Source: Gammaproteobacteria bacterium (GTDB taxonomy: Bacteria > Pseudomonadota > Gammaproteobacteria > Eutrophobiales > Eutrophobiaceae). From it: a DNA stretch of 64,000 nucleotides. This document shows, piece after piece, positions 4,740-64,000 of this stretch (position 1 is its first letter; each line of letters starts with the position of its first letter). The position numbers were made by a program, and so were the translations under genes. The notes under the pieces were generated by a model that was not told the DNA's origin, ran no database searches, and was given only the letters and a program-made list of their open reading frames with translations. The stretch spans positions 2,254,356-2,318,355 of the forward strand of contig OZ251218.1 of assembly GCA_965240365.1 (NCBI GenBank). The letters are read 5' to 3'.

Positions 4740-5200
4740 TCATCCCGGCAAGCCGGGATGTATTTTATAAACCACTGGATTCCAGCTTTCGCTGGAATGA
4801 CGATGGGGGCAATAGGCGCATTATGAGCGATACTAAACGATACCGTGGCCAGGATACCTGACGCCTTATTTTAGATAAGGTGACCCTGCATTCCTGCTAA
4901 AGCCCTGCCTGCTATAGGCAGACAGGATGACGGAAAGCCAAAACAACACCTCGTTGTCATTCCGGCGAAGGCCGGAATCCAGGAGGACGGGCCGGGATGT
5001 GAAATGAGCGCCAGTCCTGCCTGATTGTCATTCCCGCCTGAGCGGGAATGTATTACATAAACCACTGGATTCCAGCTTTCGCTGGAATGACGGGTAGTAA
5101 GCGGACTGCTGTTTGCCGTTTCTCTGACTTTGTTATCATGCCGGTCTACCCGGTGAAGGCAGGCAGGACGCCGCATGCCGGACATCCTGTGCATAAATGA
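4740..5200. repeat. About 460-bp palindromic-repeat array between fecR and the TonB-dependent transducer
   Basis: gtcattccagcgaaagctggaatccagtggtttat, cattcccgctcaggcgggaatg, cattccggcgaaggccggaatccaggag modules, several in inverted orientation. Confidence 0.7.
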
Positions 5201-7239: not shown

Positions 7240-7480
7240 CGTCATTCCAGCGAAAGCTGGAATCCACGCCTGCCGGAGGCAGGCCTGCCTGCTGCAGGCA
7301 GGTAGCGGGGTGGCAGCTAATTCAGCGGGGTCTGTTGGAATGAGGTATTCAGATGGTCATTCCCGCTTATGCGGGAATGTATTGTATCAACCACTGGATT
7401 CCAGCTTTCGCTGGAATGACGATGGGGTGTTGTTCCGGCTTTACATCATTCCGGCCTGCCTGCCGCAGACAGGCTCATGC
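7240..7480. repeat. Palindromic repeat cluster
   Basis: cgtcattccagcgaaagctggaatcc, ctgcctgctgcaggcagg, cattcccgcttatgcgggaatg modules. Confidence 0.6.
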
Positions 7481-16333: not shown

Positions 16334-17278
16334 ATGCAAAAAGATTCACGAATTTATGTCGCGGGCCATACCGGTTTGGTGGGCAGCGCGATATGCCGCT
16401 ATCTGCACAAGCATAAATTCACTAACCTCATTGTCCGCTCCCATGCCGAACTCGACTTGATGGCGCAAACCGAGGTCGAGCGGTTTTTTGAAGCAACAAG
16501 GCCGGAATATGTGTTTGACGCTGCGGCGGTGGTGGGGGGCATCCAGGCCAATGCGGCCAGGCCGGTTGAGTTTCTGCGTGATAATCTGTTAATACAGACC
16601 CATCTTATTGATACGGCCTGTAAATATGAGGCAAAAAAACTGGCCTTTCTGGGCTCCACCTGCATCTATCCGCGTGATTGCCCGCAGCCGATAAAAGAGG
16701 AATATCTGCTCACGGGCCCGCTGGAAGAAACTAATCAGTGGTATGCGATAGCCAAGATTGCGGGGCTCAAACTTTGTCAGGCCTACCAAAGACAATACGG
16801 CTTTAATGCCATCGCGTTGATGCCGACCAATCTCTACGGGCCGGGCGATAATTTCAGCCTGCCCGGTTCGCATGTCCTGCCGGCCTTGATCAGAAAATTC
16901 CATGAGGCCAGGCTCAGGCAGGCCGAAACGGTGGAAGTCTGGGGCTCCGGGCGGCCCTGCCGGGAATTTCTGTATGTTGACGACCTGGCCGAGGCGGCCG
17001 TCTTTCTCATGCGGAATTATAATGATCCCTCGATCATCAATATCGGCGTGGGCAAAGACATCAGTATTATGGCGCTGGCCGATTTAATAAAAAACACGGT
17101 GGGCTATAAAGGCGACATTGTCTTTAATACCGGCCAGCCGGATGGCACACCCAGAAAGCTGTGCGATGTAAGCAGGCTGAGGCAACTGGGCTGGCAAAGC
17201 AGCACGTCACTGCGCCGGGGTATTGAGTTGACTTATGCCTGGTTTTGCAGGCATTATGGTAAGGAAGCTCTGATTTAA
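16334..17278 (+). CDS. fcl: GDP-L-fucose synthase (GDP-4-keto-6-deoxy-D-mannose 3,5-epimerase/4-reductase)
   Basis: IYVAGHTGLVGSAI Rossmann start, NLYGPGDNF, SHVLPALIRKFHEA; 314 aa. Confidence 0.85.
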   Translation: MQKDSRIYVAGHTGLVGSAICRYLHKHKFTNLIVRSHAELDLMAQTEVERFFEATRPEYVFDAAAVVGGIQANAARPVEFLRDNLLIQTHLIDTACKYEAKKLAFLGSTCIYPRDCPQPIKEEYLLTGPLEETNQWYAIAKIAGLKLCQAYQRQYGFNAIALMPTNLYGPGDNFSLPGSHVLPALIRKFHEARLRQAETVEVWGSGRPCREFLYVDDLAEAAVFLMRNYNDPSIINIGVGKDISIMALADLIKNTVGYKGDIVFNTGQPDGTPRKLCDVSRLRQLGWQSSTSLRRGIELTYAWFCRHYGKEALI

Positions 17279-17462
17279 TCAGAGTTTTATGCGGCATAGG
17301 GACCTGCCTGCTGCAGGCAGGTGTGCCGCCCCAAATCAATAACCTGGCATTGACGTCAGTCATTGATTTTGAAGCCCTGCCTGCTACAGGCAGGAGGGTG
17401 AAAATGCAATTTTCACCCCGCGTGCTCTGGGAAGTTCAGGATGGACTTATTCAGAGTTGCCT
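17263..17462. mobile_element. MITE family B copy (diverged, about 200 bp); its first 16 bp supply the last codons and stop of fcl
   Basis: Terminal palindrome ggaagctctgatttaatcagag..., internal aggtgaaaatgcaattttcacc and ctgcctgctgcaggcagg modules, ends ...ggatggacttattcagagttgcc; homologous to 26030-26202, 50937-51086, 60066-60214. Confidence 0.6.
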
Positions 17463-18479: not shown

Positions 18480-18915
18480 CCCGGTCTATGGCGGAATATT
18501 CCAGTTGCCCTTGTCGTCATTCCAGCCTGCCTGCAGCAGGCAGGCCCGACTGGGCTGAAAAGCCCGAAGGCACGATAGAGCGACAGGGGCGCGGTTCTCA
18601 TTGAGGCCCGGGGACAATGATTCCCCAACACAGAGGCCGGATAGTCGTATGCAGTCTTATTTTACCGTTACTGAATAATCAGCTTGCAAACTACGAGGTG
18701 TACATATAGGCCGGAATGACGACAAGACGTAGATGGTAAAGCGGCACCTGCTTGCGGCGGGTTGAAATGAGGGGATAGAAAGAATAACAGGTTTGCTGTA
18801 AAGCGTGCTTCTCTCTCCATCGTCATTCCGGCGAAAGCCGGAATCCAGAAAGGCGGGCCGGGATGTTGGGTGAATTTTGATGCCTGCTCTTGCAGGGATG
18901 ACAACAAGACGTAAG
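18480..18915. repeat. Palindromic repeat cluster
   Basis: cattccagcctgcctgcagcaggcagg, gtcattccggcgaaagccggaatccag, ggaatgacgacaagacgta / gggatgacaacaagacgta direct repeat. Confidence 0.55.
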
Positions 18916-25985: not shown

Positions 25986-26029
25986 GATCGTAGGGAGCAA
26001 GACCACATGATTCACACAAGGAAACTCTG

Positions 26030-26202
26030 ATTTAATCAGAGTTTCCTGCGGCACAGGGAAGTGCCGCCCCAAGATCAATAACTTGGCAATGACGTCAGTC
26101 ATTTGATTTTGAAGTAAGGTGAAAATCGCATTTTCGCCTTGCGCGCTCTGACCTGCCTGCAGCAGGCAGGTGAGTCCTGGATGGACTTATTCAGAGCTTC
26201 CA
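26030..26202. mobile_element. MITE family B copy (inverted orientation) in the hflX-hflK intergenic region
   Basis: ggaaactctgatttaatcagagtttcc ... aggtgaaaatcgcattttc ... ctgcctgcagcaggcagg ... tcctggatggacttattcagagcttcc; flanked by ACAA on both sides (putative 4-bp target-site duplication). Confidence 0.65.
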
Positions 26203-26225
26203 CAATATATCTGGAGACCGTATTA

Positions 26226-27380
26226 ATGGGCTGGAACGAACCACCTGACAACAAGGGCAAGGATCCCTGGGGTAATCGCGGCAATAGCGGCGGGCCGCCT
26301 GACCTTGACGAGATCATAAAGAAGATGCAGCAGGGCTTCGGTGGCCTGTTTGGCAAGCGTCCGGGGCCGGAGTCGGCCCAGGGAAAGAACAATTCGATGT
26401 TTCCCACCCTGTTCGCCGTTATTCTGTTGATCGTCTGGCTGGCCTATGACATGACCTACCTGATCGACCAGCAGGAACGCGGGGTCGTGCTGCGTTTCGG
26501 CAAGCATGTCAGCACGCTTGAACCGGGCCTCAGCTTCCGCCTGCCGCGCCCGGTCGAGACCGTTAACAAGGTCAATGTCGGCCAGGTGCGCCCCATTACC
26601 CACAAGGCGCTGATGCTGACCCAGGATGAAAACATTGTCGATGTTGAAGTGGCCGTGCAATGGCGTATCGGTAATGCCACCGATTATCTGTTTAACGTGT
26701 TCTCGCCGGCCGGCACCCTGCGCCAGGTCACCGAGAGCGTCGTGCGCGAAGTCATCGGCAAAAGCGAGCTTGATTTTATCCTGACCGAGGGGCGCAGCGA
26801 GATCACCGGCCGCATCCAGGAGATCACCCAGCAAACCCTGAACGATTATGCCTCGGGCATTTATATCTCAACGGTCGAAATGCAGCCGGCCAAGCCGCCC
26901 GAGGAAGTCAAGGCCGCGTTTGACGACGCCATCAAGGCGCGCGAGGACGAACAGCGCCTGGTCAATGAGGCGGAAGCCTACCGTAACGACATTATCCCCA
27001 AGGCGCGCGGCGCGGCGGCGCGCCTGCGCGAGGAGGCCAACGGCTACAAGTCGCGGGTCATCTCCAAGGCGGAGGGCGAGGCCAGCCGCTTCGAGCAGTT
27101 GCTGACCGAATATCAGCGCGCCCCCAAAGTCACGCGCGAGCGCCTGTATCTGGACACTATCGAATCGGTCTTTTCCAATACCAACAAGGTGCTGATCGAT
27201 AATGACAACGGCAACAGCCTGATGTATCTGCCCATCGACCGCCTGATGGACCGGCGCCAGGGCGGCGGCGCGGCTGCCGGCCAGGACTTCAATAACGCCT
27301 CAACCGCCGCCTCCAACATGCAATCCACCTATAATGACGCGCGCGAACGCCTGAACGACCGCCTGCGGGGAGTACGCTAA
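26226..27380 (+). CDS. hflK: Protease modulator HflK
   Basis: MGWNEPPDNKGKDPWG... start matches HflK N-terminus; SPFH/band-7 domain; GGAGA RBS upstream. ORF-track start at 26139 runs into the MITE. Confidence 0.85.
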   Translation: MGWNEPPDNKGKDPWGNRGNSGGPPDLDEIIKKMQQGFGGLFGKRPGPESAQGKNNSMFPTLFAVILLIVWLAYDMTYLIDQQERGVVLRFGKHVSTLEPGLSFRLPRPVETVNKVNVGQVRPITHKALMLTQDENIVDVEVAVQWRIGNATDYLFNVFSPAGTLRQVTESVVREVIGKSELDFILTEGRSEITGRIQEITQQTLNDYASGIYISTVEMQPAKPPEEVKAAFDDAIKAREDEQRLVNEAEAYRNDIIPKARGAAARLREEANGYKSRVISKAEGEASRFEQLLTEYQRAPKVTRERLYLDTIESVFSNTNKVLIDNDNGNSLMYLPIDRLMDRRQGGGAAAGQDFNNASTAASNMQSTYNDARERLNDRLRGVR

Positions 27381-33639: not shown

Positions 33640-34110
33640 TGTGAGATAAATCAGGGCTGCCTGCTGCCAGTAGGCGCCTTGCCAGCCGGAACAGTGTGTT
33701 TGGTTGTCATTCCCGCTTTCGCCGGACGGCTACGGGCATCCTCGGCAGCTTGTTCCTGACACTGCTCTACCACCTACGTCCTGTAGGCGTGCCCTCCCTG
33801 CCTGCTGCAGGCAGGTCGCCGCATACAGGACTTCCTGTCCATAAATGACGGTAGGGGCGGAATGTCCAAGTTCAACAACATACAAGACAAATCAGGGAGG
33901 TAGGGAATCCGTAGAACTGCCTGCAACAAGCAGGTTAGCGCAGATTATGTGTTGTTCTGTTTGGCCTGTTGCTGACGGGCGGGAATGATGGAAAGTGAAT
34001 TTCAGCTACGTCGTCATTCCGGCGAAAGCCGGAATCCAGGACAGTAGGGCCGGAGAGTGAAATAGATTACGATTCTGTCTGCCTGCCTGCTGCCAACAGG
34101 CTACAGGCAG
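33640..34110. repeat. Palindromic repeat cluster
   Basis: ctgcctgctgccagtaggc, gtcattcccgctttcgccggacgg, ctgcctgctgcaggcagg, ccataaatgacggtaggggcgg, cgtcattccggcgaaagccggaatccag modules. Confidence 0.6.
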
Positions 34111-34441: not shown

Positions 34442-34711
34442 ATGACTGACTTACTTGCAACTGAAAAGACCTATCTAGCTGATCACCAATCCGAACTTGT
34501 GCAGAAACACCCCGGCAAATTCCTGTTGATAAAGGGAAAAGCCGTACATGGCGCTTTCCAGACTTACGAACAGGGTGTGATCGAGGGAACGGCGCGGTTC
34601 GGCGCCGGCCCCTTCCTGGTTCGCGATGTCTCTGCCACTTCTGATCCCGAAGCCCCGAACATACCGGCCTTGTCCATTGGGCTGCCGTTCACCCGCCTTG
34701 CCGATAATTAA
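34442..34711 (+). CDS. Small conserved protein (89 aa) that precedes a retropepsin-like protease; family not confidently assigned
   Basis: Substitutions against the partial duplicate at 35811-36037 are almost all synonymous in this frame, supporting protein coding. Confidence 0.6.
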   Translation: MTDLLATEKTYLADHQSELVQKHPGKFLLIKGKAVHGAFQTYEQGVIEGTARFGAGPFLVRDVSATSDPEAPNIPALSIGLPFTRLADN

Positions 34712-34728
34712 CCCGAAAGTCCAGGCCC
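34501..34728. repeat. Copy 1 of a 228-bp direct duplication (second copy at 35811-36037)
   Basis: About 94% identity; one 1-nt indel at the left edge; copy 1 lies within the small-protein gene. Confidence 0.9.
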
Positions 34729-35594: not shown

Positions 35595-35860
35595 CAGTGG
35601 TAATCGCTAATCTCAACATCAGCGGGGCCGTTCGGCGTCCAGACAAGGCAAATATGCCATTGGCGATTGATCCGCACGGCATGTTGCCCGGCCCGGTCGC
35701 CTTTCAGTGCTTCCAGCCGGTTACCCGGCGGAAGGCGTAAATCCTCCACGACAACCGCGGTATCCAGGGCCGTGAGCAGCGCCCGCGCGCGCTTTCTGCC
35801 TTGATATACCGCAGAAGCACCCCCGGCAAATTCCTGCTGATCAAGGGAAAAGCCGTACAT
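35594..35860 (-). CDS. higB: HigB toxin (RelE/ParE superfamily) with a chimeric N-terminus
   Basis: C-terminal LKGDRAGQHAVRINRQWHICLVWTPNGPADVEISDYH matches HigB. The first 13 codons (MYGFSLDQQEFAG) are encoded antisense to copy 2 of the 228-bp duplication. Confidence 0.65.
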   Translation of the reverse strand: MYGFSLDQQEFAGGASAVYQGRKRARALLTALDTAVVVEDLRLPPGNRLEALKGDRAGQHAVRINRQWHICLVWTPNGPADVEISDYH

Positions 35861-36037
35861 GGCGCTTTCCAGACTTACGAGCAGGGCGTGATCGAGGGAA
35901 CGGCGCGGTTCGGCGCCGGCCCCTTCCTGGTTCGCGATGCCTCTGCCACTTCTGACCCCGAAGCCCCGAACATCCCGGCCCTGTCCATTGGGCTGCCGTT
36001 CGCTCGCCTTGCCGATAATTAACCCGAAAGTCCAGGC
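35811..36037. repeat. Copy 2 of the 228-bp direct duplication; carries a 5'-truncated paralogue of the 34442-34711 gene (ORF 35801-36022)
   Basis: Alignment to 34501-34728; the reading frame is preserved with only synonymous changes. Confidence 0.9.
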
Positions 36038-45044: not shown

Positions 45045-45245
45045 ATGGGAAATGGGAACAACACCTCATCGTCATTTATGGACGGGATGTCCTGTATGCG
45101 GCGACCTGCCTGCTACAGGCAGGGCTCAGCGGGAAAATGACAACCAAACACACCATTTTGACCAGCCTGGAACGGCCAGACAGCGCCGGAATCCGTTTCA
45201 CACCCCGGCCCCGCCTCCTGGATTCCGGCTTTCGCCTGCCCATGT
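45045..45245. repeat. Palindromic repeat cluster
   Basis: catcgtcatttatggacgggatgtcctgtatgcggcgacctgcctgctacaggcagg ... cctggattccggctttcgcc. Confidence 0.6.
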
Positions 45246-47639: not shown

Positions 47640-48010
47640 TTGCGGCAGGTAGCAGACAGGCGAAAACCGGAATCCAGGAGGGCGATGCCGTAGTGTAAAA
47701 CAGATTTCGGTTCTATCTGCCTGTAACAAGCCGTTCAGAATCAGGCATTTGTTGTCATTCCCGCTTGGCGGGAATGTATAATGAAAACCACTGGATTCCG
47801 GCTTTCGCCGGAATGACGGCGGGGGTTATTCTCGCTCCCGTCATTTATGTAGGCGCGCGCTCTGGAATAACCGATTCTTAACTTCATACACTATCGTCAT
47901 TCCGGCGAAGGCCGGAATCCAGGAGGGCGGGCCGTGGTATGAAACAGATTCGGGTTCTGTCTGCCTGTATCAAACCGTTCAGAATAAGGCATTTCCGGAA
48001 TGACGACGGG
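47640..48010. repeat. Palindromic repeat cluster (about 370 bp)
   Basis: cgaaaaccggaatccaggagggcg, gtcattcccgcttggcgggaatg, cactggattccggctttcgccggaatgacggcggg, tcgtcattccggcgaaggccggaatccaggagggcggg; internal 2x duplication. Confidence 0.65.
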
Positions 48011-50750: not shown

Positions 50751-50869
50751 GCGGGGGTAAATTATAAAAATCCGCAGACCGGTCTGGTGCGCGCGGGTTA
50801 ACGCAGATGACGTACTTATTCTGGTCGCCTTGGCGCACAGGACGAAAATGGAAGGGTCTGTTGAAAGGT

Positions 50870-51490
50870 TAATTCCAGCCCCGTCGTCATTCCAGCGAAA
50901 GCTGGAATCCAGGAGGGTAGTCCGGGGTACTATAGTGGAAGCTCTGAATAAATCCATCCTGGATTTCTCAGAGCACGCAAGGTGAAAATGCGATTTTCAC
51001 CTTGCTTCAAAATCAATGATTTGCATCATTGATTTTGGCGGTACGTCCCTGTACCGCAGGAAACTCTGATTCAATCAGAGTTTCCTAGTGAATTGCAGCT
51101 TCCACCTGCCTGCGCCAGACCGGTCTGAATGGTGTGTTTGGTTGTCATTCCCGCAAGCGGGAATGTATAACATAAACCACTGGATTCCGGCTTTCGCCGG
51201 AATGACGGAGGGGGCGATAGCAGGTTTTTCGTCATTCTGGTCGGCCCCGTTGGTTACTCTTGACGCATTCCCGGGAGCAGCACTTTACCGTCATTCCGGC
51301 GAAGGCCGGAATCCAGGAGAGCGGGGGTGGAGTGTTGGATGAATTCCGGCTTTTGCCTGCTTGCACCGGACTTACCGGAATGGTGTGTTTGGTTGTCATT
51401 CCCGCTGGGCCTGTCACAGGCAGGAAGGTGAAAATCGCATTTTCATCTGGCGCGCCCTGAAAATCCAGGATGGACTTATTCAGGGCTTCT
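50870..51490. repeat. Repeat cluster containing a MITE-B copy plus dRS3-like palindromes and a partial MITE-B end (51420-51490)
   Basis: gtcattccagcgaaagctggaatccaggag; gtcattcccgcaagcgggaatg; cgtcattccggcgaaggccggaatccaggag; aggtgaaaatcgcattttcat...tccaggatggacttattcagggcttc. Confidence 0.65.
50937..51086. mobile_element. MITE family B copy (150 bp, near-identical to 60066-60214)
   Basis: ggaagctctgaataaatccatcctggatttctcagagcacgcaaggtgaaaatgcgattttcaccttgcttcaaaatcaatgatttgcatcattgattttggcggtacgtccctgtaccgcaggaaactctgattcaatcagagtttcc; TAGT on both flanks (putative target-site duplication). Confidence 0.7.
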
Positions 51491-51504
51491 TTTAGAATCA
51501 AACC

Positions 51505-58345: not shown

Positions 58346-58628
58346 GGGCCTGTTAACACTATTTTAGCAGTGCCTGTTGTGCCCCAAACTGCGCCAATCA
58401 AGGCGCGCGGAGCGAAATTTGGTCATTCCAAATGAGCGACCTGCCTGCAGCAGGCAGGCAACAACGCCGAGTGGCGCAGTTTGGGGCACAACCCGGAGGG
58501 CTTGGCCTGTTTTGCGCCCAGCTTCGTTGTCAGTCGCTTGAGTAGCGCAACTACACTGCGCTTCTTCCGCCTTGCTGGCGCGCAAAACAGACTCAAGCAG
58601 GGACTGCTAAAATAGTGTTAACAGGCCC
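58346..58628. mobile_element. MITE family C (283 bp) with 31-bp terminal inverted repeats and a TA target-site duplication, inserted between the response-regulator and histidine-kinase genes
   Basis: Left end gggcctgttaacactattttagcagtgcctg, right end cagggactgctaaaatagtgttaacaggccc (1 mismatch); nested inverted repeats gtgccccaaactgcgcc / ggcgcagtttggggcac. Flanking TA on both sides; the right TA is part of the kinase TAG stop. Confidence 0.7.
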
Positions 58629-60007: not shown

Positions 60008-60065
60008 GGTTTTGGCCGGCGCCTTTTAATCGGGAAATTACAATTATAAGACAGGATTGTATTGA

Positions 60066-60214
60066 GGAAGCTCTGAATAAATCCATCCTGGATTTCTCAG
60101 AGCACGCAAGGTGAAAATGCGATTTTCACCTTGCTTCAAAATCAATGACTTGCATCATTGATTTTGGCGGTACGTCCCTGTACCGCAGGAAACTCTGACT
60201 CAATCAGAGCTTCC
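60066..60214. mobile_element. MITE family B copy (149 bp)
   Basis: 97% identical to 50937-51086; TTGA on both flanks (putative target-site duplication). Confidence 0.7.
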
Positions 60215-60617
60215 TTGAGCGAATACAGGCAATATTTCGGCGCCCGCATCCTGAAGTTTCCATGAGGAGGCGTGAAAAAAGTTTGCAGAATAACAGCTAC
60301 CAGGGCGGTAGCAGTGAATTCAATAAAAAACCATCACCCGGTCATAAACCAACGCCGCTTTCACTTGTCTGCAACCGGAATGATATTGTTGGATGGCGCC
60401 GGACGCGGCGGAATGAGGATTACCGGCCAATAGTTTTATACCGGACATTTTGCTGCCTTGCGGCAACGCCCGGCACTTGCGCGTTGAACGCTTTTTTATT
60501 CAGATTAGGGCTTGATTCGATTTAAGCCGCCAGGACCTTCATTCGCAGGCAGGGGCGTGGCCCCGCGGGCCATTAAGCCCGCTGCCTCCCCCGCGCTTTC
60601 AGCGCCCGGCCCTGCTG

Positions 60618-62556: not shown

Positions 62557-64000
62557 AATGTGGAAATTAGCGCTGTCTTTGCTGTTTTTTTTGCCGGTCG
62601 CGGCCCTGTTGCCTGATCTGCACACGTCAAACCCGCTCGCCTCGCGCGAGGATGGCCGGGGATCCCCTGTATTTCGAATAGTCTCGCTGCTGCCGCTACA
62701 GGCCGTTTATGCGCTGGAGGATTTCGATGATGACTCCGCGGACGGCGATGCGGATGGCGATGACGGCTTTGACAGTGACTTTGATGATGACGATGCCACG
62801 GATGATTTCGCGGGGAATGATGATAGCAGGGACGATAGTGACGGATTCTCGGCAGGACGTGATAACAGCGGGGATGATAGCGACCGCTTCACTGCGGAGC
62901 GTGATGACAGCGGGGATGATAGCAACCGCTTCACGACAGGGCGTGACGACAGTCGGGATGATAGTGACCGCTTACCAACGGGGCGCGATGACAGCGGGGA
63001 CGATAGTAACCGCTTCACGGCAGGGCGTGATGATAGTGAGGACGATGCAGATTCACGGCGTGACGATGATGATGACTTCGCATTTGATGACGCCAACGCT
63101 GACGATGGTGACAGGGATGACTTCGAACGTGATGATGACGGGGGGATTGGCGATGAGACGGATGACGGTTTTGAGACCGCCTTCGGTTTTGATGGCGACG
63201 ATAACGATGATGGCAATGGCGATGAGGGTATCGAGGTGGACAATCCAAGCGATGCCGGGGATGATGGCGCCGATGACGATGCCCTTGCGCGCGGCGGCGA
63301 AGATGGTGACGACCGGGAACAGTTAGACGGCAACGCCGCCGCCCCGGAAAGTGATACTTTCATCAGCCTGGAAAATGACACTTTTATAATCCCTGATGAT
63401 AATCCCTTGCGTCTGGATAATATCGTACAGGGTCCGGACGGCGATCCCCATATCAATGGCGAAATGCTGGTCCTGGTTGACGCCACGGAATACAATGAAA
63501 TCATCAGCAAACTCCAGTACCGGATTATTGCCGAGCAGAGGATCAAGACACTCGGCCAGGTTTTGGTCAGATTACAGGTGCCCACGCGCGATTTTCAGAC
63601 TGCCGCCGAACTCATCAGCGCTAACGCGCCCGGCGCGAGCATAGACTACAACCACACTTACGATTTATCCAACGCCGGCGCCGCCCTGGAAACAGGGGCG
63701 GAAATCCGGCACGACAGCCGTATTGCGCTGGACGGCGCGAGGGTAAAAATAGGCATGATTGACTCGGGCGTGGACAGATTTCACCCGAGCCTGAAACAGG
63801 CGGATCTGGTTATTCGTGATTTTTCGCCGAAAAATACCAGAACGTCTTTTAGCCACGGCACCGCCATTGCCTCGCTTATCGTCGGCAATGAAGAGAGCAG
63901 GTTCACGGGCTTCATCCCCACGGCCACCTTATATGCGGCATCGGTCTTCGGCCTTTCCGAGAAGGGCCATATTCGCTCCACCACCGAAGACCTGGTCCGG
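62557..64000 (+). CDS. Secreted subtilisin-like serine protease (S8 family) with an acidic Asp-rich tandem-repeat region after the signal peptide; partial, continues past the window end
   Basis: Read in the third plus-strand frame (absent from the ORF track because no stop in window). Signal peptide MWKLALSLLFFLPVAALL; 14-aa repeats RDDSGDDSNRFTAG; catalytic Asp box VKIGMIDSGVD and His box SHGTAIASLIVG. Confidence 0.75.
62830..63050. repeat. Coding tandem repeat, about 5 copies of a 42-bp unit (cgtgatgacagcggggatgatagcaaccgcttcacgacaggg)
   Basis: Direct inspection; encodes the RDDSGDDS(N/D)RFT(A/T)G repeats. Confidence 0.85.

Follow-up and report, generated by a model that had tools for sequence, protein, structure and literature searches.

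A probable IS5-type MITE family built of five covarying hairpins in Gammaproteobacteria

Introduction

The spacer downstream of recN in this gammaproteobacterial contig contains a short palindromic segment that recurs, in both orientations, elsewhere in the same stretch of DNA (64,000 nucleotides, referred to below as the window). A sequence-only reading had proposed that these segments are copies of a MITE family. The locus raises the question of whether they are mobile DNA at all, what kind of enzyme might move them, and whether their paired structure serves the element or the host. The answer suggested below is an ordinary kind of element; it is unusual only in that a string of five hairpins has been kept paired during the evolution of the family.

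Results and Discussion

Copies of the element in the window

A profile search (nhmmer) detected four full copies and one partial copy in the 64-kb window. The four copies listed in the sequence-only reading are all real and their locations were right, with ends that had to be corrected to 50937-51085, 17263-17461 and 26020-26201, while a fifth, truncated copy at about 51418-51490 on the minus strand had been overlooked. Three diagnostic motifs of the family have 4-7 matches each in the window, as opposed to 0.00 expected from dinucleotide shuffles.

The two youngest copies are both 149 bp long and lie on the plus strand. The first, at 50937..51085, is found downstream of recN within a 754-bp repeat mosaic; 59/59 of its stem pairs are Watson-Crick, and it is flanked by a TAGT duplication at 50933-50936 and 51086-51089, i.e. 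the right-hand duplicate begins at base 51086, which lies outside the copy. The second, at 60066..60214, lies upstream of a sensor histidine kinase gene on the minus strand, with 59 bp between the copy and the gene start (60007), and is flanked by TTGA at 60062-60065 and 60215-60218. The two differ at 3/149 positions (98% identity), and all 3 differences of copy 60066 from copy 50937 disrupt stem pairs. The 97% identity reported earlier for this pair is also what the repeat search gives, over 156 nt with the flanks included.

The two older full copies are on the minus strand; they owe their length beyond 149 bp to a separate 19-bp palindrome, CCTGCCTGCNNCAGGCAGG, that lies nested within both. 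The copy at 17263..17461 (199 bp) contains two such palindromes (17303-17321 and 17376-17394), and the copy at 26020..26201 (182 bp) contains one (26152-26170). The flanks of the former read GTAA and TTAA on the plus strand, a 3/4 match; the latter has a perfect ACAA duplication at 26016-26019 and 26202-26205. The truncated copy (minus strand, about 51418..51490) retains the left end and hairpins 1-2 only, and stops 14 bp short of the ATG of an RND adaptor gene (51505). The three flank duplications noticed in the sequence-only reading (TAGT, TTGA and ACAA) are each perfect on both sides, and the two orientations it mentioned are represented by two full copies each, with the truncated copy adding to the minus strand.

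Anatomy of the element

The canonical element is non-coding and 149 bp long, and the ORFs that cross it are short and spurious only. It is composed of five consecutive local hairpins and not of one long stem that joins the two ends. The ends had been described as palindromic, which is correct yet understates the structure: the whole element consists of hairpins, and the terminal inverted repeats (TIRs) take up only about 11-15 nt at each tip. In copy 50937 the left TIR and a conserved subterminal block occupy 50937..50962 on the plus strand (GGAAGCTCTGAATAAATCCATCCTGG), and the left ~26 nt of the element are almost unchanging across lineages. In the 31 aligned copies the left end reads GGAAGCTCTGA(ATAA), and the right end reads TCAGAGnTTCC, i.e. 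the reverse complement of GGAAnCTCTGA.

The hairpins are described here on the plus strand of the same copy. Hairpin 1 (50941..50974) has an outer stem GCTCTGA/TCAGAGC that overlaps the left TIR and an inner stem AAATCCA/TGGATTT closed by the loop TCC. Hairpin 2 (50977..51005) reads GCAAGGTGAAAAT-GCG-ATTTTCACCTTGC, and hairpin 3 (51008..51037) reads CAAAATCAATGAT-TTGC-ATCATTGATTTTG; in the latter, 12/13 pairs show compensatory change across lineages. Hairpin 4 (51038..51057) has the form GCGGTAC...GTACCGC with a conserved CATCC-like loop. Hairpin 5 (51059..51085) is the 27-bp right-end palindrome, GGAAACTCTGATT-C-AATCAGAGTTTCC, the outer arm of which is the right TIR. As RNA, the 149-bp unit folds with a minimum free energy of -79.1 kcal/mol (z = -12.2; the other strand behaves alike), and as DNA with -55.7 kcal/mol (z = -13.8). 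The consensus sequences of three lineages fold independently into the same five hairpins.

There is also variation in length. Short forms of 81-96 bp, made up of hairpins 1, 4 and 5, likewise have perfect duplications, which means that hairpins 2-3 are not strictly required for insertion. Forms of 42-44 bp with hairpin 1 only were considered as minimal mobile units and rejected, as they may have arisen by deletion in place between TCAGAG direct repeats and their flanks match at just 3/4 positions. A longer subfamily, seen at loci L082, L127, L148, L102, L136, L175 and L182 (JACXTT01 metagenome), has about 80 extra nucleotides inserted into the hairpin 1 loop.

Wider copy set and distribution

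Species-representative genomes, scanned with a pattern taken from hairpins 1-2, yielded at least 60 loci, and the left end of the element matched at least 120 metagenome contigs. Among the 60 genome matches listed, about 35 are true copies, distributed over at least 16 gammaproteobacterial genomes or MAGs; the carriers include Halothiobacillus spp., an Immundisolibacter, a Methylococcaceae MAG and several uncultured lineages. The MAG MFD03066.bin.1.24 is represented among the matches listed by 13 aligned copies and further partial matches. Among the 120 metagenome matches listed there are 59 full-length copies. Searches of a plasmid collection (blastn) and of viral contigs returned nothing relevant.

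We note that the copy sets were gathered by exact-match patterns within hairpins 1-2, so conservation in these two hairpins is inflated, and that the sets hold several copies per genome, with copies of the same genome not being independent observations. Apparently, the family has not been described before: there is no Rfam family for it, and its end sequences were not found in the literature searched. It can be viewed as a clean, well-bounded family, probably of IS5-type MITEs, that spans uncultured and cultured Gammaproteobacteria. It also has a practical side, as short-read assemblies break at these elements and many metagenome contigs end inside one (e.g. in assembly JACXTT01, inside members of the longer subfamily).

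Target-site duplication

The 4-bp duplication had been named beforehand as the property on which the MITE reading could fail, and it holds in the wider copy set. That set comprises 88 distinct full-length insertions, taken from genomes and metagenomes other than the window; the flanking 4-mers are identical in 54/88 cases and match at 3/4 positions in a further 19/88. Shifting either flank by 1-8 bases leaves 0-2 identical of 88. When the right flanks were permuted among the 88 insertions, 12.7 +/- 3.0 were identical, and the highest count reached in 5000 permutations was 26; a target preference shared by the copies therefore cannot alone explain the 54 matches seen.

The flank logo of the 88 insertions shows Y in 85 (T56/C29), T in 76, A in 75 and R in 82 (A56/G26). 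The composition one base beyond the 4-mer is random, which indicates that the duplication is exactly 4 bp. The perfect duplications of the metagenome set (n=37) are TTAA (11), TTAG (8), CTAA (7), CTAG (4) and seven others, so that 30/37 are YTAR. In the window, the duplications of three of the four full copies are perfect but do not have the YTAR sequence (TAGT, TTGA and ACAA/TTGT). The share of non-YTAR targets among perfect duplications elsewhere is about 19%, and the non-YTAR targets of the window are within that range. Other features of MITEs are also present, i.e. the family is non-coding, dispersed, inserted in both orientations and bounded by terminal inverted repeats.

Link to IS5 and the search for a parent transposase

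The target-site duplication of IS5 has the motif 5'-YTAR-3' (PMC5009759). An E. coli IS5 copy that we fetched has the ends GGAAGGTGCGAATAAG / GGAAGGTGCGAATAAGCGG and GGAAGGTGCGAACAAGTCC and is flanked by a TTAG duplication. The left end of the MITE is identical to the IS5 left inverted repeat, GGAAGGTGCGAACAAGTCC, at 15/19 bases, and so is the variant left end found in copy 26020 (GGAAGCTCTGAATAAGTCC, 15/19). The right inverted repeat of the same E. coli copy is identical to the MITE end at 12/15 bases, and the IS5-type inverted repeat pattern (GGAAGGTGCGAA.AAG...) is present in the MITE ends.

The 4-bp YTAR duplication and the 15/19 match of the left end point to a non-autonomous IS5-type DDE transposon. 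Judged by its ends and its target, we consider it highly probable that the family consists of non-coding MITEs of about 150 bp that are moved in trans by an IS5-group DDE transposase. Such an enzyme, presumably itself of the IS5 group, would recognise the two tips (GGAAGCTCTGAATAA... on the left and ...TCAGAGnTTCC on the right), would excise or copy the element, and would insert it at a YTAR tetranucleotide by means of a 4-bp staggered cut, the repair of which would leave the 4-bp duplication.

The search for a parent element covered about 1.2 Mb, made up of the window and of the 60 genome and 120 metagenome loci. Within this set, tblastn with E. coli InsH gave no IS5-like transposase, and no long element bounded by the MITE ends was found either, i.e. 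no inverted pair of ends 0.45-3.5 kb apart with matching flanks encloses a transposase there. The sequence-only reading had called the family active in this genome and had pointed to a cognate transposase as a check. The window and the fetched loci (about 1.2 Mb) yielded no transposase with matching ends, and the youngest pair of copies already differs at 3 positions, so the claim of present activity finds no backing here.

Two groups of candidates were rejected as parents. The end pairs at loci L157 and L102 are separate MITEs that lie around a candidate EAL-domain gene (L157) and an unrelated 780-aa gene (L102). At contig ends L116 (9880-10006) and L120 (14515-14651) there is the C-terminus of a transposase that ends in ...YLKEIEYRYNHRKENLF..., a motif which we take to be of the IS1595 type. 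The same IS end is seen at both loci with differing flanks, and at L116 the IS interrupts a MITE copy; because of these two facts the IS is considered to be unrelated and nested. The two inverted family members at 1267-3095 of L157 are both flanked by TTAA and bracket a 440-aa ORF, which by eye is a candidate EAL-domain (c-di-GMP phosphodiesterase-like) protein. This arrangement could be composite transposon-like or a coincidence of the preferred target.

Covariation and decay of the stems

The structure used for the counts comes from a copy of the window, with three lineage consensuses folding alike on their own, and over 31 aligned copies it is 86.8% paired. Both sides have changed in 38/59 pairs (140 cells) of this alignment. 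In column shuffles, 0/500 reach any of the five covariation measures, and if the partners are slid by 1-3 columns the pairing falls to 35-49% and the covariation score drops from 0.263 to at most 0.118. RNAalifold, which is independent of the supplied structure, reports compensatory change in 20/27 of its pairs.

The same tendency is seen between lineages. The window and the MFD03066 consensus differ by 10 pairs changed on both sides with 0 broken, and the window and the Halothiobacillus consensus by 13 pairs changed on both sides, 1 kept by a one-side change and 4 broken. The number of Watson-Crick pairs is 59/59 in the window consensus, 58 in that of Hainich and 55 in that of MFD (all with 0 G.T), and 54 plus 1 G.T in that of Halothiobacillus. 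Over all copies there are 78 G.T and 102 A.C mismatches, a balance which shows that neither strand is favoured.

Within a genome the private substitutions broke 71 pairs, kept 29 by a one-side change and compensated 10. The substitution rate within genomes was 161 in 118 columns (1.36) for the stems versus 42 in 31 columns (1.35) for the unpaired positions; in other words, inserted copies decay neutrally. Pairing is thus kept by compensation in the source lineage and is not protected in inserted copies, so it most likely serves the propagation of the element and not the regulation of neighbouring genes. In our reading, selection for pairing acts on those copies that spawn further ones, and at the insertion sites the host does not maintain it. 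At the level of DNA, i.e. as palindromes or hairpins, the pairing seems to matter for element propagation rather than for host genes. A point against this is that IS5-type DDE transposases are not known to require internal hairpins. By setting the compensation in the source lineage against the neutral decay of inserted copies, selection on repeat structure at the level of the element may be told apart from selection at the level of the host.

A stronger version of this reading holds that the five hairpins are a functional requirement of the life cycle, which would make the family a hybrid of a cut-and-paste MITE and a hairpin-dependent palindromic element. The points that bear on it are the confinement of compensation to the propagating lineage, the near-pure Watson-Crick consensuses and the lack of strand bias. 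It may take one of two forms: either the hairpinned or cruciform DNA of the element would be copied or captured at replication forks by the DDE transposase, or the hairpins would allow the element to sit harmlessly in the host DNA whichever way round it is inserted. We regard the stronger version as unlikely, if worth stating, and it is only if the hairpins prove mechanistically required that the family would represent a new kind of biology.

A mutational explanation of the covariation is considered improbable. It states that stem covariation is a by-product of template-switch correction of quasi-palindromes, so that the hairpins themselves have no role. The stems are indeed perfect palindromes with loops of 3-6 nt, which is the classical substrate of template-switch mutation, and the lineage consensuses are nearly free of G.T pairs. 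However, template switching should also keep old inserted copies paired, and the counts given above (71 broken, 29 kept by one-side change, 10 compensated) are at odds with this expectation.

It is very improbable that the copies are dispersed structured small-RNA genes or cis-regulatory RNA modules (terminators, attenuators or mRNA stabilisers) that are kept by the host. The very stable fold and the covarying stems would suit such a role, and so would the positions of copies in spacers, at the 3' end of a gene and within an operon. Against this, the whole window has 0 matches to Rfam 15 at the gathering score, with eukaryotic families at chance level only at E up to 10, and the full copies contain neither a sigma-70-like promoter nor a T-run preceded by a hairpin. 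Whether the copies carry promoter or terminator activity had been put forward as a check in the sequence-only reading, and the sequence scans find neither inside full copies. Moreover, the wobble pairs show no bias to either strand, and the orientation of the copies to their neighbours has no clear bias (by a crude ORF call, co-directional 11 sense versus 19 antisense, 15 convergent and 10 divergent). Finally, the stems of inserted copies decay as fast as the loops, which means that the host does not preserve them.

A further reading, which we hold to be most unlikely, is that of a palindromic element of the REP/REPIN or IS200/IS605 type that would travel in single-stranded form, moved by a hairpin-recognising Y1 (HUH) transposase. 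The element is all hairpins, its near-pure Watson-Crick consensuses and balanced G.T/A.C counts (78 versus 102) fit a DNA-level hairpin, and other REP-like palindromes abound in the genome, some of them nested in MITE copies. However, Y1-mobilised elements insert beside a fixed tetra- or pentanucleotide and are not known to make a duplication, whereas here the same 4-mer is present on both flanks and varies between copies (TTAA, TTAG, CTAA, CTAG and others), and the tips are true inverted repeats that are 15/19 identical to the IS5 inverted repeat. The variable 4-bp duplications largely refute it.

Comparison with known systems

The IS5-type MITE reading can be compared with systems described in other bacteria. 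The family resembles E. coli IS5 (IS5 family, IS5 group) in its 4-bp YTAR duplication and in a TIR that begins GGAAG..T..GAA.AAGTCC. It differs from IS5 in that it has no transposase gene, in its length (149 bp as opposed to about 1.2 kb), in its five-hairpin interior, in its right end, which is a 27-bp palindrome, and in that some insertions are at non-YTAR targets.

Correia elements of Neisseria (CREE) have a TA duplication and inverted repeats of about 26 bp of the Correia sequence; unlike them, the present MITE has a 4-bp YTAR duplication and an unrelated end sequence. Like Correia and ERIC/RUP-type MITEs, the family is small, abundant and intergenic, and the transcripts of those elements fold stably and the elements may be co-transcribed with neighbours (see PMC10969869). 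Correia, ERIC and RUP elements fold mainly by pairing of the two long ends into one long stem, whereas here there are five local hairpins. The family is also similar to REP/REPIN elements, which are RAYT-mobilised, in that short palindromes are scattered in intergenic DNA. REPINs have, to our knowledge, no DDE-type terminal inverted repeats and no target duplication, whereas the MITE family has both.

MITEs with IS5-family parents are known from Porphyromonas gingivalis (BrickBuilt, MITE293/MITE700), and the ATR element of Neisseria is a proposed derivative of ISNme1 (PMC4596501). These elements are likewise non-autonomous, are assigned to the IS5 family by shared TIRs and retain no transposase remnant (PMC4596501). 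Nevertheless, their ends (GAGACCTTTGCA) are unrelated to the ends of the present MITE, their duplications are variable or unclear, they have tandem repeats instead of a covarying string of hairpins, and they belong to other host phyla.

Genes next to the copies

In the wider copy set 66/69 copies are outside long ORFs, as judged by a crude ORF call. Within the window, the ORF at 16334-17278 is fcl, which encodes GDP-L-fucose synthase (NCBIfam, E 1e-136), and the copy at 17263 was said to supply its end; this is so, as the last four codons (EALI) and the stop are inside the right end of the element. The copy previously placed in the hflX-hflK spacer is indeed there, with the element (26020-26201) between the stop of hflX (25985) and the ATG of hflK (26226). 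In other words, one insertion rewrote the 3' end of fcl and another copy lies inside the hflX-hflK operon.

At 26181-26228 an outward-reading ATG (MDLFRAS...) is present in the left end of the hflX-hflK copy. The reading frame of this ATG runs without a stop into the hflK start, 15 codons further on. This is probably incidental, since the native hflK start has a better-spaced GGAG.

The spacer between recN and the RND adaptor gene is 754 bp of repeat mosaic in the window (50751-51504) as opposed to 77 bp in the nearest relatives, the RecN proteins of which are 86-87% identical to that of the window. Two of their loci were fetched (L063 and L064; a TARA scaffold and a Logan assembly of a read run), and the element is absent from the 77-bp spacer of both. 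At 86-87% RecN identity the spacers cannot be aligned base for base, so that the comparison yields the absence of the element only; as far as sequence comparison goes, it is consistent with an insertion at the recN site after the lineages diverged. The MITE family thus explains inflated intergenic regions of this kind.

A sigma-70-like consensus match (TGGACT-16-TAGAAT, 9/12) at 51471-51498 is the only one near the copies. Part of it lies in the outer end of the truncated copy and the rest in the adjoining flank, and it faces the RND adaptor gene at a distance of 7 bp.

Other repeats in the window

The 19-bp perfect palindrome CCTGCCTGCNNCAGGCAGG forms a family of its own, with about 16 sites in the window versus 0 expected by chance. 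The sites include 495-513, 7284-7302, 17303-17321, 17376-17394, 18526-18544, 26152-26170, 33797-33815, 45105-45123, 58440-58458 and others. Three of them are nested in the older MITE copies, which indicates that a REP-like unit was inserted there after the arrival of the MITE. The window is also dense in other families of short palindromic repeats that form mosaics (GTCATTCCGGCGAAGGCCGGAATCCAG, CATTCCCGC..GCGGGAATG and GTCATTTATGGACAGGATGTCCTGTATG); examples of such repeats are found at 743-779, 4954-4982, 47894-47922 and 51178-51214.

Longer repeats occur as well. Tandem repeats of 42 nt (at least 5 units) are found at 62810-63061 in a minus-strand ORF, and tandem repeats of 54 and 63 nt at 1167-1538 within another ORF. 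A pair of 217-nt direct repeats (34510-34726 and 35821-36037) is 95% identical and 1.3 kb apart. Finally, the minus-strand ORF at 14526-15746 matches squalene synthase (TIGR01559, E 9e-35), with a score below the curated cut-off.
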